From Streptosporangiaceae bacterium (lineage in GTDB: Bacteria > Actinomycetota > Actinomycetes > Streptosporangiales > Streptosporangiaceae), in the NCBI GenBank assembly GCA_036501145.1, contig DASYAV010000155.1, forward strand, positions 6,164 to 70,163: a DNA stretch of 64,000 nucleotides, read 5' to 3'. Position 1 is the stretch's first letter; each line of letters begins with the position of its first letter. Position numbers and translations under genes: made by a program. The notes beneath the pieces are model-generated. The model did no database searches and was not told the origin of the DNA. It saw only the letters and a program-made list of their open reading frames with translations. This document shows positions 60,014 through 64,000 of this stretch, piece by piece.

Positions 60014-60505
60014 TCAGCCGACCTCGTGGCCGTACATGGCGCCGAGCGGGTCGGCGATCAGCTCGACCCTGGCGCCGTCGGGGTCGTTGAAGTACAGCGA
60101 CGTGCCGCTCTCCTCCTGGTAGCCCACGCCGGCCGCGTACAGCTTGTCGCGCAGCCGTTCCCACCGCTCCGGCTCCACCGAGATCGCGATGTGGTGCAGC
60201 CCGCCGAGCACCTCGTCGTACGGGCCGAGGTCCAGCCCGGGGAAGTCGAAGAAGGCGAGCAGATTGCCGTGGCCCAGGTCGAAGAAGAAGTGGTTGGAGC
60301 CGGCGTAGTCGCGGTTCTCGAAGATCTCGGTGAGCGGGAACTCCAGCAGGTCCTGATAGAACTTGATGGTCCGCTCGACATCGGCGGACAGCAGCGCGAC
60401 GTGGTGCACCCCACGGGCGGAGCTGGCCGGCCGGTTCTCGCGCACGTACTGTGACCGCAGCCGGTCACGCTCGGCCGTGATGGCGGCCAGGTCGATGTCA
60501 GTCAT
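60014..60505 (-). CDS. VOC-family (glyoxalase/bleomycin-resistance/dioxygenase) protein
   Basis: 163 aa. GVHHVALLSADVERTIKFY and HHIAISV motifs. Confidence 0.8.
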   Translation of the reverse strand: MTDIDLAAITAERDRLRSQYVRENRPASSARGVHHVALLSADVERTIKFYQDLLEFPLTEIFENRDYAGSNHFFFDLGHGNLLAFFDFPGLDLGPYDEVLGGLHHIAISVEPERWERLRDKLYAAGVGYQEESGTSLYFNDPDGARVELIADPLGAMYGHEVG

Positions 60506-60540: not shown

Positions 60541-61038
60541 TCAGGTCGGCGAGCCCGCCGCCGCCCCGGTGGCCTGCTCACCCCAGCGGGCCAGCGCGTT
60601 CTCCAGGTCGAGCGGCGCGATCATGTCGCCCTTGGCCAGTTCACTCTCCCAGTCCTGGGCCGGGACCCGCCACATCACCTCGAACTCGATGCCGTCCGGA
60701 TCCTTGGCGTACAGCGACTTCGACACGCGGTGGTCGCTCGCGCCGACCAGCGCACCGCCGGCGGTCAGCCGGTCCTGGATCTCGGTCAATTCACCGAGCG
60801 TGCCCACCTCCCAGGCCAGGTGGTAGAGCCCGACCTTCTGCTCGGCCGCGGGCCGGGACGGGCCGACCTGGAACAGGCCCAGGTCGTGGTCGTTCGATGA
60901 GCCTGGTGCCCGCAGGAAGGCCGCCCGCCCGGGTATGTCGGTACGCATCTCGAAGCCGAACATCTGCTGGTAGAAAGCGGTGGACCGGGTCACGTCGCTG
61001 ACGTAGAGCACCGCGTGGTTGAGCCGGCGAACGGCCAT
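60541..61038 (-). CDS. VOC-family protein
   Basis: ATG 61038, six nt after GAGGAG. LNHAVLYVSDVTRSTAFY and LYHLAWEV motifs. Confidence 0.8.
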   Translation of the reverse strand: MAVRRLNHAVLYVSDVTRSTAFYQQMFGFEMRTDIPGRAAFLRAPGSSNDHDLGLFQVGPSRPAAEQKVGLYHLAWEVGTLGELTEIQDRLTAGGALVGASDHRVSKSLYAKDPDGIEFEVMWRVPAQDWESELAKGDMIAPLDLENALARWGEQATGAAAGSPT

Positions 61039-61119
61039 GGCCATCTCCTCGTTCCGGGAGCCATTGTGCTGCTGAGAGCTTTGTAGGGGAAATGCCCGCA
61101 CCGGGCACTTCGATTCCCG

Positions 61120-62430
61120 CTACGGAACAAGCGGGCCGGTGTAGACGGCCCGCGGGCGCAGCGGGGTGGCACGTGCGTACTCCTCGAGGGCGTGCGCGAT
61201 CCACCCGGCGGTGCGTGCCACCGCGAAGATGGCCTCACCGGCCCCGCTGATCAGCCCGGCCACGTCGGCCAGCGCGGCCAGGGCCAGGTCGATGTTCGGC
61301 TCGGGCAGCGCGCGCTCGCGCATCTCGGCCAGCACCGCGTCGGCCACCACCAGCCGGGGCGAGCCGGCCGCACCGCGGCGGACCAGGCCGAGCAGGCAGA
61401 CCGCCCGCGGGTCGCCGGTGCGGTACACGAAATGGCCGAAGCCGGGCACCCGGCCGGTGAGCCGCAGCAGGTCGCCGACCACCCGCGAGGCGTCACCGGG
61501 GGTGGCCGCGGCCGCCAGCATGCCCTCGGCGCCGAGCGAGGCGCCCCCGTGCAGCGGCCCGCCCAGCGCACCCAGCCCGGTGGCTACCACGGCGTACGGA
61601 TCCGCGCGGACCGACGCGGCCACCCGGGCGGCGAACGTGGACGCGGCCAGTTCGTGGTCGGCGAGCAGCACCAGCGCGGCGCGGAGGGCGGTGAGCAGGC
61701 CTGGTGTCGCCGGGGCCGGGCAGAGCTTGGGCCACAGCCGGCCGGCGATGCCCTCGCCGGCGGGCGGCGCGCCGCCCGCGGGGCCGGCGGTGTGTGGGGC
61801 GCCGGGGTCAGTGGGGTGGCTGGCGGCCGGGCCGGCCGGATGGCTGGTGGCGCCGGTGGGTGCCGCGGGCGGCAGGCTGTCCACCATGCCGGCGATCAGC
61901 GCGCGGCCGGCCGCCACCACGGCCGGGCTGTCCAGATGCAGCCGGAGCGGGTCGGCCGCGGCCAGCGCGGGCACGATGACCTGCAGCCGCTCCAGTGGCA
62001 GCGCCCTGCCGGGCAGCGCGGCCTGGGCGGCGGCTCCCACGGCCACCGCCTCGGGGCTGGCATGCCACGGCTGCACGTCCGCATCCCCCGGGCCGCCGGG
62101 CGCGGGGAGGGCGCCGGTCCAGAGCAGGGCGGCGACGTCTTCCAGGGTGTGGGTGGCAGCGAGGGAGGTCACCTCGCGGCCGCGGAAACTGAGCCGGTCG
62201 TCGGTGATCTCCGTCAGCGCGGACTCGATGACCAGTTCGGTGGTGCCGGGGGCGCGGCGGGGGCGGCCGCGGCGGGCGAGCCGCTCGATCTCGCCGGAGT
62301 CGAACAGGCTGCCCCGGCCGTCCGCTGACCGCCTGCGCACCAGCACGCCCCGGCTCACGTACGCGTACAGGGTGGCCCGCTTGATGCCAAGCCGCTGCGC
62401 CGCGGCGTCGGCGGTGATCCAGTCCGTCAT
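61120..62430 (-). CDS. fusion protein: N-terminal excisionase/MerR-type HTH + citrate-synthase-family domain
   Basis: N-terminus ITADAAAQRLGIKRATLYAYVSRGVL (HTH_17-like). Citrate-synthase motifs LLADHELAAST, GPLHGGA, VPGFGHFVYRTGDPRA, PNID and ARTAGWIAHALEE. Pro/Gly-rich insert near residue 200. Confidence 0.8.
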   Translation of the reverse strand: MTDWITADAAAQRLGIKRATLYAYVSRGVLVRRRSADGRGSLFDSGEIERLARRGRPRRAPGTTELVIESALTEITDDRLSFRGREVTSLAATHTLEDVAALLWTGALPAPGGPGDADVQPWHASPEAVAVGAAAQAALPGRALPLERLQVIVPALAAADPLRLHLDSPAVVAAGRALIAGMVDSLPPAAPTGATSHPAGPAASHPTDPGAPHTAGPAGGAPPAGEGIAGRLWPKLCPAPATPGLLTALRAALVLLADHELAASTFAARVAASVRADPYAVVATGLGALGGPLHGGASLGAEGMLAAAATPGDASRVVGDLLRLTGRVPGFGHFVYRTGDPRAVCLLGLVRRGAAGSPRLVVADAVLAEMRERALPEPNIDLALAALADVAGLISGAGEAIFAVARTAGWIAHALEEYARATPLRPRAVYTGPLVP

Positions 62431-62447
62431 CGTGCCTTCGTTGTCGT

Positions 62448-62467
62448 AGATTGATTTTAATCAATCT
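62448..62467. promoter_or_regulatory. perfect 9-2-9 AT-rich palindrome AGATTGATT-tt-AATCAATCT in a divergent promoter
   Basis: Read directly. Lies between the HTH-citrate-synthase start (62430) and the HMGL-like synthase start (62502). Confidence 0.55.
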
Positions 62468-62501
62468 TGATCCATGCTGCCGCAATGTGTCAACGTGAGG
62501 T

Positions 62502-63734
62502 GTGCCTACCATCCACTTTCTCGATGTGACCAACCGCGACGGCGTGCAGACCGCACGGACCGGACTGTCCAAGTTCGGCAAGACGATGCTGAACTTCTAC
62601 CTGGCCAGGCTGGGCGTGGCCCAGTCCGAGATCGGGTTCCCCTACCTGTTCCACGAGGTGCCCTACGTGCGGGCCAACGTGGCGCTGGCCCAGGCCGGCG
62701 CGTTCGGCGCGCTGCGGCTGTCCGGCTGGTGCCGGGCGATCACCGCGGACGTGACGGATTCGGCGCCGCTGGGACTGCGGCACTACAACCTGTCCATCTC
62801 GACCTCGGACCAGATGATCGCGCACAAGTTCCGCGGCAAGCTGGACCACGCCGCGATCATCACCGAGATGACCGCCGCCGTAACCGCGGCCCGGGCCGCC
62901 GGCGCGCAGACAATCGGCGTCAACGCCGAGGACGGCTCGCGCACCGACGACAAGTTCCTGCTCGACTTCGCCACTGCCGCCCGCGACGCCGGCGCCGACC
63001 GGGTCCGGTACTGCGACACCATCGGCGGCGACTCCCCGGCCCGGATCCGGGAGCGGTTCGCCCGGCTGGCCAGCGTGACCGGCATCCCGGTCGAGACGCA
63101 CTGCCACAACGACCTGGGCATGGCGGTGGCCAACTCGGTCTCCGGCGCGCTCGGCGACCTGGACGCCGGGCAGGACGCCTGGGTCAACACCTGCATCAAC
63201 GGGATCGGCGAGCGGTCGGGCAATGCCGACCTGCTGTCGTGCATCCTGGCCTTCTCGCACGCCATCGGCGTCGCCGGCGCCGCCCCCATCGGGGACAAGC
63301 TCGACCTGTCCTGGGCACGCCGGTTCGGGCTGTGGGCCAGCTACGCGTTCGGCCAGCCGCTGCCGCAGAACCAGCCCGGCACGGGAGTCAACGCGTTCGC
63401 CCACGAGTCCGGCATCCACGCGGACGGCGCGCTCAAGGACCGGAACAACTACGAGCTGTACGACGACGAGGCGCTCGGCCCGTTCCCGGCCGACTGGTTC
63501 GCGACCCGCGGCCGGGTCGTGCTGACCGGCGAATACGGCGGCATGGCCGGGTTCCGGCACGTCATGGACGGCCTCGGCATCGAGGTGGCGGCCGACGACG
63601 CGGACCTGGTCTTCCAGCTCGTGCAGCTGTGCGCCTCGGCCACCGGCAAGCCGCTCACCGACGATGAGCTCCGCCTTATCGCCGGCTACCCGCGCGAGCT
63701 TTCGCTCCTGTTCCCGGGCCAGCTCAGCTCGTGA
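62502..63734 (+). CDS. HMGL-like (DRE-TIM) 2-oxoacid:acyl-CoA condensing enzyme, homocitrate/isopropylmalate/citramalate synthase family
   Basis: LDVTNRDGVQ, ETHCHNDLGMAVANS and CINGIGERSGNADL motifs. GTG start has a poor RBS, so the start is uncertain. Confidence 0.8.
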   Translation: MPTIHFLDVTNRDGVQTARTGLSKFGKTMLNFYLARLGVAQSEIGFPYLFHEVPYVRANVALAQAGAFGALRLSGWCRAITADVTDSAPLGLRHYNLSISTSDQMIAHKFRGKLDHAAIITEMTAAVTAARAAGAQTIGVNAEDGSRTDDKFLLDFATAARDAGADRVRYCDTIGGDSPARIRERFARLASVTGIPVETHCHNDLGMAVANSVSGALGDLDAGQDAWVNTCINGIGERSGNADLLSCILAFSHAIGVAGAAPIGDKLDLSWARRFGLWASYAFGQPLPQNQPGTGVNAFAHESGIHADGALKDRNNYELYDDEALGPFPADWFATRGRVVLTGEYGGMAGFRHVMDGLGIEVAADDADLVFQLVQLCASATGKPLTDDELRLIAGYPRELSLLFPGQLSS

Positions 63735-63755: not shown

Positions 63756-63950
63756 CTAGCCGCCGATCGAGCGGCGGCGGTTGGACCGGATGCGGCTGCG
63801 CTGGGACGGGCTCAGCATGGCCCAGCCGGCCACCGGGACGCCGATGGCGACCGCCAGCAGCACGAGCGGAACCCAGAACGGGATGGGCAGGATGAACAAG
63901 ATGAGCGCGATGACGCCGAGCGTGATGCCGGCTTTCGTCCCGGGCCTCAT
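63756..63950 (-). CDS. small hypothetical membrane protein (two TM segments, basic tail)
   Basis: 64-aa ORF, hydrophobic core, RSRIRSNRRRS tail. Confidence 0.4.
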   Translation of the reverse strand: MRPGTKAGITLGVIALILFILPIPFWVPLVLLAVAIGVPVAGWAMLSPSQRSRIRSNRRRSIGG

Positions 63951-64000
63951 GTAAGGCTCCCTCCGCGGAGAACCTGGGGTGCTCTCCTGCTGTGACGCGA

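Follow-up and report, generated by a model that had tools for sequence, protein, structure and literature searches.

Does a protein that joins a helix-turn-helix (HTH) to a complete citrate synthase (CS) fold work as an enzyme, as a ligand-sensing regulator, or as both? The question is raised by a gene in a 64,000-nucleotide (nt) stretch of DNA from a Streptosporangiaceae bacterium; we refer to the whole stretch as the window. The gene and the parts of its product are the following.

61120..62430, minus strand: HTH-citrate-synthase (HTH-CS) fusion gene, P0001, encoding 436 amino acids (open reading frame and translation, Pfam, AlphaFold2 model)
62269..62430, minus strand: N-terminal winged HTH, residues 1-54, with recognition region GIKRATLYAYVSRG (DSSP topology, residue conservation)
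62254..62274, minus strand: basic linker RRGRPRR, residues 53-59, AT-hook-like in the clade of the source protein (alignment, low model confidence)
61150..62232, minus strand: complete CS fold, residues 67-427 (Pfam, PDB sequence and fold matches, residue tables)
61753..61869, minus strand: variable Pro/Gly/Ala-rich insert with SHP repeats, approximately residues 188-226 (alignment, model confidence)

Judging from sequence comparisons and a predicted structure, the fusion protein is probably a one-component regulator that uses its CS fold as a sensor and controls its own gene together with a divergent gene for an alternative citrate-type synthase. The original prediction had already suggested that the CS fold may sense a metabolite and control DNA binding. 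This reading gains support from conserved synteny, from a near-unique operator, and from the conservation of the HTH and of the ligand-binding residues.

The 436-residue reading frame and the CS motifs quoted for it are present on translation and alignment: GPLHGGA (containing H294), GFGHFVYRTGDPRA (H333 and R342), PNID (D381) and ARTAGWIAH (R406). The Pfam profile Citrate_synt scores 201.6 bits on residues 67-427 and is covered from position 7 to position 357 of 357, and Foldseek returns full-length CS matches. The protein thus belongs to PF00285 as a fold, and the full CS domain of the original prediction is borne out. The domain carries H259, H294, H333, R342, D381, R406 and R427, and the catalytic residues His274, His320 and Asp375 (pig numbering) are all kept, as H294, H333 and D381. 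The Asn of the DHE.NAST motif (pig Asn242) is replaced by Ala262; a literature search on the role of Asn242 in pig CS found nothing. All 21 NCBIfam models for citrate synthases, methylcitrate synthases and citryl-CoA lyases stay under their cut-offs (best score, 156 versus 332 bits), which makes the fusion a divergent CS-fold protein outside any named enzyme subfamily. The HTH is matched, over residues 4-55, by HTH_17 with 23.3 bits (cut-off 27) and by MerR_1 with 20.2 bits (cut-off 21.6).

An AlphaFold2 monomer model built on 127 diverse homologues (50%-identity representatives) replaced a poor earlier model made from 32 close homologues (predicted local distance difference test score, pLDDT, of 61.7). 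The final model has a mean pLDDT of 91.5 and a predicted template modelling score (pTM) of 0.85. Its N-terminus adopts the winged β-α-α-β-β-α topology of HTH_17/MerR-type domains (strand 4-6, helices 7-14 and 18-26, strands 32-34 and 41-44, helix 45-54 by DSSP; pLDDT 90-96). Taken together with the sub-threshold Pfam matches and the presence of PF12728 in most homologues, this agrees with the excisionase/MerR-type HTH that had been proposed. The modelled CS body matches full-length citrate and 2-methylcitrate synthases (PrpC) with template modelling (TM) scores of 0.74-0.82, normalised to the target, at 22-28% identity (Foldseek). Residues 51-70 form a basic linker of low confidence, in which R54-G55-R56-P57-R58 is invariant among the 32 close homologues and is reduced to a basic patch across the family; the RRGRPRR sequence could have a role in the minor groove. 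Besides the linker, confidence is low only in two Pro/Gly-rich stretches, residues 111-120 and 190-225. The second contains the SHP repeats, an insert that had been picked out in the original prediction and is real, with a pLDDT of 51-62; it is absent from some homologues and over 100 residues long in others. Given this variation and the low pLDDT, we take these stretches to be disordered loops and not functional repeats.

The fusion belongs to a large family. An exhaustive search of 50%-identity representatives gave E values below 1e-63 for the best 150 matches, nearly all of which are 380-500 amino acids long. In a collection clustered at 90% identity, 7,547 of the 8,000 candidates scored are significant matches, some share of them ordinary CS proteins; the best 120 are 64-91% identical to the fusion, and most of these carry PF12728 and PF00285 in their precomputed annotation. 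Family members are named citrate synthase in the databases, and sometimes helix-turn-helix domain-containing protein. The loci that we collected come from Streptosporangiaceae, Nonomuraea, Actinomadura, Thermoactinospora, Nocardia, Micromonosporaceae, Streptomyces and Acidimicrobiia, and the members of the divergent representatives' clusters include no taxa outside Actinomycetota and Acidimicrobiia. Among Pseudomonadota, the ESM Atlas groups 386 look-alikes in one cluster, 17% of which are flagged for HTH_17; a plasmid collection yielded two actinobacterial records only, with the site unannotated.

Residue conservation, counted over the 127 diverse representatives, is highest where DNA and ligand would be bound. 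The HTH is present in all 127 full-length representatives aligned; L14, Y22 and Y24 are found in 127/127, and S26, R27 and G28 in 126/127 each. The residues expected to bind oxaloacetate or citrate are nearly as constant (R342 in 127/127, R406 in 125/127, H259 in 124/127). The catalytic residues are less well kept: H333 is present in 103/127 (Gln in 16), D381 in 112/127 (Glu in 9, Gly in 5) and H294 in 118/127. The DHE.NAST Asn is found in none of the 127 fusion representatives, 107 of which have Ala, and in every enzyme-type CS with which they were compared, namely the PDB matches, the stand-alone CS proteins encoded opposite some family members (see below) and the other CS of the source genome. 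These stand-alone partners also score 346-372 bits with Citrate_synt, compared with 201 bits for the fusion. The pattern is what would be expected of a ligand-binding module whose catalysis is no longer the selected function, although it is not proof that the triad-intact source copy is inactive.

These counts bear on two other ways of reading the protein. It could be an active citrate or 2-methylcitrate synthase that, like PutA or BirA, doubles as a regulator of its own gene by way of the HTH, with turnover setting its affinity for DNA. The source protein has an intact His/His/Asp triad and all oxaloacetate-binding arginines, its CS fold is complete, including the small domain, and the triad residues are kept in 81-93% of the diverse representatives (H294, 93%; H333, 81%; D381, 88%). 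Yet the Asn242-to-Ala replacement is shared by a family in which this Asn occurs in 0/127 representatives, approximately 19% of the representative clusters have lost the His320 equivalent while retaining the HTH and the binding arginines, the scores fall far short of the enzyme profile cut-offs, and in most surveyed loci a separate, dedicated condensing enzyme is encoded next door. We consider an active, autoregulating synthase unlikely. The second reading, an ordinary enzyme with a vestigial, functionless N-terminal extension, would be in line with the public annotation as citrate synthase and with the sub-threshold HTH scores of the source copy. It is very improbable, as a vestige would have decayed, whereas no part of the protein is better conserved between classes than the HTH residues, and the HTH is confidently folded in the model.

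If the fusion is a regulator, the gene facing it is its most obvious target besides itself.

62502..63734, plus strand: HMGL-like Claisen-condensing enzyme of 410 amino acids (Pfam HMGL-like, 142 bits, and HCS_D2; no LeuA regulatory domain)

The divergent HMGL-like synthase named in the original prediction is therefore present as described, with its HMGL-like match of 142 bits together with HCS_D2. The lack of any conserved synteny with this gene had been set down as a result that would count against the sensor idea; synteny is in fact conserved. An HMGL orthologue lies directly upstream and divergent in 42/80 family loci, with an identity of 75-90%, and is better conserved than the fusion itself. 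Among 40 related genomes compared for co-occurrence, the orthologue is found in 14/15 genomes with the fusion (adjacent and divergent in 13/14) and in 0/25 without it; kinship inflates these counts, and several of the genomes are incomplete.

In a further 24/80 loci the divergent partner is a stand-alone CS-family protein. A CitA-like CS takes this place in Streptomyces, Acidimicrobiia, Micromonosporaceae and five of six close Streptosporangiaceae metagenome-assembled genomes (MAGs), and a GltA-type CS in one MAG. In some Acidimicrobiales the partner is a CBS-CS protein, with an N-terminal CBS pair (87 bits) before Citrate_synt (364 bits; L079:6378-7934(-), also in L074 and L097). The CBS-CS protein is a second kind of regulatory-domain fusion to citrate synthase at an HTH-CS locus. 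The partner in Nocardia is a DUF2332 protein (326 bits; L066:6872-7981(-) and L070), with the operator kept, and that in L060 is a methylguanine-DNA methyltransferase-like gene. In a few remaining loci the HMGL gene is present and is either frameshifted or not directly adjacent. In a complete genome of the same genus (G001:C18:149745-150991), the match to the HMGL orthologue is split between two frames, with overlapping parts that cover query residues 1-273 and 272-409; the split reflects either a pseudogene with a frameshift or a mistake in the sequencing.

When the partners are mapped onto the fusion-protein tree, with Acidimicrobiia as the root, the CS partner comes out as ancestral. One switch to HMGL marks a clade of 49-51 rows (Shimodaira-Hasegawa-like approximate likelihood ratio test, SH-aLRT, 99), and a nested clade of six MAGs (SH-aLRT 99) has gone back to a CS partner, giving a minimum of two changes in total. 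The flanking genes of the six switched-back MAGs are the same as at HMGL loci. The regulator gene and the operator are thus kept while the gene opposite is exchanged in place between two unrelated folds, each of which joins acetyl-CoA to a 2-oxo acid. On the simplest reading both kinds of partner have the same function, which would make the HMGL protein a citrate-type, possibly a Re-citrate, synthase.

The best NCBIfam match of the HMGL protein is the NifV homocitrate synthase model (243 bits versus a cut-off of 463), and its closest solved structures are homocitrate and isopropylmalate synthases, at approximately 115 bits. An HMGL-like barrel and HCS_D2, without a LeuA regulatory domain and outside a leu/lys/nif context, is the layout of a Re-citrate synthase, and this is the layout of the gene in the window. 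Some close homologues are named citrate (Re)-synthase at JGI, an automatic label; it is on these labels and on the partner-swap argument that we base the tentative Re-citrate synthase assignment. Known Re-citrate synthases (EC 2.3.3.3) come from Clostridium kluyveri, Syntrophus aciditrophicus and Heliomicrobium, which are anaerobes, and are oxygen-sensitive (PMC12016533; Li et al. 2007 cited therein). They are HMGL-fold relatives of homocitrate synthases, are habitually annotated as homocitrate synthase, and are so far known only from anaerobes (PMC12016533). The HMGL-like partner resembles them in its relationship to homocitrate and isopropylmalate synthases, in the missing LeuA regulatory domain and in standing alone, and differs in coming from aerobic-type soil actinomycetes.

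What would the HTH bind? The 71-nt spacer between the two genes contains two conserved elements.

62448..62471, no strand assigned: composite operator, ATCAAGATTGATTAAAATCAATCT on the HTH-CS strand, with three half-sites (TCAAG/ATTGA, 6 nt, TCAA)
62488..62496, no strand assigned: conserved box, TTGACA on the HTH-CS strand and TGTCAACGT on the HMGL strand, with 5 nt between it and the HMGL start codon; many spacers have it at a constant position; putative promoter element

The original prediction had noted a perfect palindrome between the genes. A 9-2-9 palindrome is indeed present at 62448-62467, but the conserved element is larger and consists of three half-sites spanning 62448-62471. The 16-nt core of the palindrome, ATTGAT-N4-ATCAAT, has a single perfect copy in the 7.6-Mb source assembly, which is the copy in the window; with up to two mismatches, 0.09 copies would be expected in the window by chance. 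We compared 39 orthologous spacers of 53-290 nt. They are GC-rich and otherwise unalignable, and have in common one AT-rich element and a TTGACA box approximately 18 nt away. On the fusion-gene strand the family element reads TCAAyrTTGA, 4-6 nt, TCAA. A pattern search located it upstream of the fusion gene in 69/70 loci, in 60 of them without a mismatch, with Acidimicrobiia, Nocardia and Streptomyces included. It is kept whatever the partner, be it HMGL, CS, CBS-CS or DUF2332. In each of five 8-11-Mb genomes of other genera the composite pattern occurs one to three times, with one occurrence always in the fusion locus, and a reversed control pattern had no matches in the same five genomes. In two large genomes the extra operator-like sites are not adjacent to CS genes and may have arisen by chance or be additional targets. 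Conservation across classes, a tie to the fusion gene and near-uniqueness in each genome are together the signature of a local autoregulator's cognate site. With its DNA-binding and enzyme-fold domains in one chain and a conserved site at its own locus, the fusion has the make-up of the enzyme-derived one-component regulators.

The source genome contains a second, paralogous divergent pair outside the window (contig C164:203065-204861; locus L112:11063-12862). The HMGL-like proteins of the two pairs are 81% identical, and the second HTH-CS, which is cut by the contig end, is 61% identical over residues 1-139. Between the paralogous genes lies one of the genome's two-mismatch copies of the core, an operator variant of sequence GTTGATTATGATCAAC. 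Downstream of the C164 HMGL gene, and in the same orientation, come a TauD-family dioxygenase gene and a HhH-GPD-like gene. A further variation on the spacer is seen in an Acidimicrobiaceae HTH-CS locus (L100:7700-7990), where three tandem repeats of approximately 70 nt (CAACACCCCGACCCGCGTGTGCGCACC) stand between the operator and the gene start.

A general search for covariation between the recognition helix and the operator is uninformative, as hardly any variation exists on either side, in the recognition region or in the operator core; useful variation is confined to position 18. The residue at this position, which follows the conserved Lys17, is Arg in two groups, the source genus and a lineage of Acidimicrobiales, while the other loci have Pro, Gln, Ala, Thr or Val. 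The first operator half-site reads TCAAG in 11/11 loci with Arg18 and in 0/73 loci with another residue. The pairing of Arg18 with G is suggestive, being what a direct base contact would look like.

The arrangement of the spacer gives some indication of how the two genes may be controlled. The TGTCAACGT box ends 5-6 nt before the HMGL start codon. The operator is at a fixed distance of 36-38 nt from this start codon in most loci, and at 1-179 nt from the fusion start. The TTGACA box may be the -35 element of the fusion-gene promoter and, on the HMGL strand, the extended -10 element of a leaderless HMGL transcript, the -35 element of which (TTGATC, 62467-62472) would be the outer operator half-site. 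TTGACA followed by 18 nt and CAAGAT would place the -10 element and the transcription start of the fusion gene inside the operator. With this geometry, bound protein would repress its own gene and would either repress the partner or activate it from a class-II-like position. The overlap of the operator with the putative -10 element and start of the fusion gene and with the putative -35 element of the partner makes us lean slightly towards a repression that is relieved by ligand.

A sequencing-run search matched the source DNA in soil metagenomes. In one metatranscriptome, a 267-nt contig is 97% identical over 62179-62443 and a 123-nt stretch matches perfectly over 62523-62645. This is a weak hint that relatives express both genes, as such contigs cannot show transcription, starts or strand.

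Several observations weigh against a regulator of this kind. Both Pfam HTH matches of the fusion protein lie below the gathering thresholds, and the protein itself has the whole catalytic triad intact. The covariation of Arg18 with G rests on two independent origins only. A neutral consensus scan of 62300-62650 found no canonical σ70 promoter and no terminator. Lastly, the homologous spacer is known to be bound by a different protein. In Streptomyces coelicolor, SCO5831 and SCO5832 (citA3/citA4) are a divergent pair of putative citrate synthases for which no DNA-binding domain is mentioned (PMC12323332, PMC9739823), and SCO5831 appears as a citrate synthase-like protein in a proteomics paper. 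The regulator MtrA binds the sequence TTGACTTAACTGTCCA in the SCO5831/SCO5832 spacer in an electrophoretic mobility shift assay (EMSA), so the spacer is not exclusive to the fusion protein.

The MtrA result in particular bears on whether the AT-rich element is the site of another factor, or a plain shared promoter, while the HTH does something else, such as unspecific tethering to the nucleoid. A GC-rich genome can be expected to have AT-rich boxes in any of its promoters, and no canonical promoter was otherwise found in the spacer. However, the element goes with the fusion gene and not with the partner, which may be HMGL, CS, CBS-CS or DUF2332; its near-uniqueness per genome is unlike the site of a global regulator; the pairing of Arg18 with G ties it to the HTH; and the published MtrA site is a different, adjacent sequence. 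In the Streptomyces loci compared, TTGACTTAACTGTCCA is a conserved box beside the operator, not inside it. We judge a site for another factor to be improbable, clearly more so than an active synthase that autoregulates. The SCO5831/SCO5832 pair resembles the locus in the window in being divergent and citrate-synthase-like. In the Streptomyces loci that we collected, an HTH-CS faces a stand-alone CS, with an operator of the same type (GTCAATATTGATTGAATCAATG) in the spacer; the partner there has the CS fold, whereas the partner in the window has the HMGL fold.

If the fusion protein is a regulator with the CS fold as its sensor, how might it work? CS proteins are obligate dimers, and an open-to-closed domain movement is typical of the fold. 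In a dimer formed by the CS bodies, two N-terminal winged HTHs would face the palindromic operator between the divergent genes. The retained equivalents of His238, Arg329, Arg401 and Arg421 in the CS fold would hold a citrate-type ligand, either citrate or oxaloacetate, the latter alone or together with acetyl-CoA. Domain closure on the ligand would shift how the HTHs are held and thereby alter DNA binding. The targets would be the gene itself and the divergent gene for an alternative citrate-type synthase, which has the HMGL fold and is possibly of the Re type. In this model DNA binding, the ligand and the allosteric mechanism are inferred; what the sequences show is the architecture, the HTH kept throughout the family, the near-unique operator, the close linkage to an exchangeable condensing enzyme and the covariation of Arg18 with G.

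The proposed arrangement has parallels among known regulators. MocR/GabR (a winged HTH joined to an aminotransferase fold), PutA and BirA are enzyme-derived one-component regulators or trigger enzymes; catalysis is kept in PutA and BirA and lost in GabR. By analogy, the fusion would share with them a DNA-binding domain on a complete metabolite-binding enzyme fold, a nearby palindrome, and control of itself and of adjacent genes. It differs in that its putative sensor fold is a citrate synthase and its HTH is of the MerR/excisionase (HTH_17) type. In classical MerR proteins, dimerisation relies on a C-terminal coiled-coil helix, and the operator sits within a promoter spacer of 19-20 bp. The fusion resembles them in its N-terminal winged HTH of the same superfamily, in the divergent promoters and in the palindromic, AT-rich site. 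Unlike in MerR, no coiled-coil helix comes after the HTH, which is joined through a disordered basic linker to a CS body, so that dimerisation would come from the CS body; and the operator is beside the TTGACA box and not between two promoter boxes, and may overlap the -10 element and start of the fusion gene and the -35 element of the partner.

A regulatory role for a CS paralogue has been described in Caulobacter crescentus, where that of CitA is independent of catalysis (Berge et al., bioRxiv 10.1101/799742, PMC7083601). The citB and citC genes of Caulobacter lie side by side; E. coli gltA is complemented by CitB but not by CitC, and the paper makes no mention of an HTH on either protein (PMC7083601). 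In contrast to the fusion, the regulatory role of CitA involves no HTH. If CitC were a member of the HTH-CS family, its failure to complement would count against an active, autoregulating synthase. Our literature searches found no paper describing the HTH-CS architecture as a regulator, in agreement with the statement in the original prediction that no characterised member was known. We found no description of the CS fold as a regulator module, although it would be of a kind already known, the enzyme-derived transcription factors.

The remaining features near the locus, and the ordinary CS gene of the source genome, can be dealt with briefly.

60541..61101, minus strand: glyoxalase/VOC-family gene (Pfam Glyoxalase, 58.8 bits), directly downstream of the fusion gene
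60014-60505, minus strand: second glyoxalase/VOC-family gene, downstream of the fusion gene on the same strand
63756-63998, minus strand: small membrane open reading frame of 77-80 amino acids, directly downstream of the HMGL gene

The gene at 60541..61101 falls into a neighbour cluster of 21 loci, in which it usually comes directly after the fusion gene, and is possibly co-transcribed with it. A role of the HMGL gene in a phosphonate or other biosynthetic cluster was considered and rejected, as the gene is monocistronic with the small membrane reading frame on the opposite strand directly downstream. A weakly matching HhH-GPD-like gene, whose score of 22-25 bits is under the Pfam cut-off, lies just past the window end (L005:4283-4807(+)) and recurs in another locus (L026:5635-6213(-)); this gene and the membrane reading frame stand beside the partner gene in approximately 25 and 11 loci, respectively, for HMGL and CS partners alike. 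The contig ends 645 nt past the window. The sole ordinary CS of the source genome (C151:11602-12615, L001) has Glu (NVE) in place of the classical catalytic Asp (NVD), and all CitA-like partner CS proteins (L028, L093 and others) likewise have NVE. No GltA-type CS was found in the source assembly, which is 87.5% complete.

Taken to its full extent, the proposal would be that thousands of Actinomycetota 'citrate synthases' form an undescribed family of transcription factors switched by CS domain closure, and, in addition, that the HMGL partner is a citrate synthase of the Re type at work in aerobic actinomycetes of the soil, a group from which no such enzyme has been reported. We put this double claim forward tentatively and would sooner expect it to fail in one of its parts than to hold in both. 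If true, a large block of citrate synthase annotations would be functionally wrong, comprising at least 150 clusters at 50% identity and also part of the more than 7,000 matches in the 90%-clustered collection, some share of which are ordinary CS. Metabolic reconstructions that count HTH-CS genes as enzymes of the tricarboxylic acid (TCA) cycle would be misled. An enzyme fold of central metabolism would join the small set recruited as allosteric modules of transcription factors, and the fusion would be a natural biosensor of oxaloacetate, acetyl-CoA or citrate with a defined 24-nt operator. Through the partner-swap pattern, an alternative and possibly Re-type citrate synthase of aerobic actinomycetes becomes accessible to testing. 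Carriers of the fusion include antibiotic producers (Nonomuraea and Actinomadura), and the CS-paired form occurs in Streptomyces.

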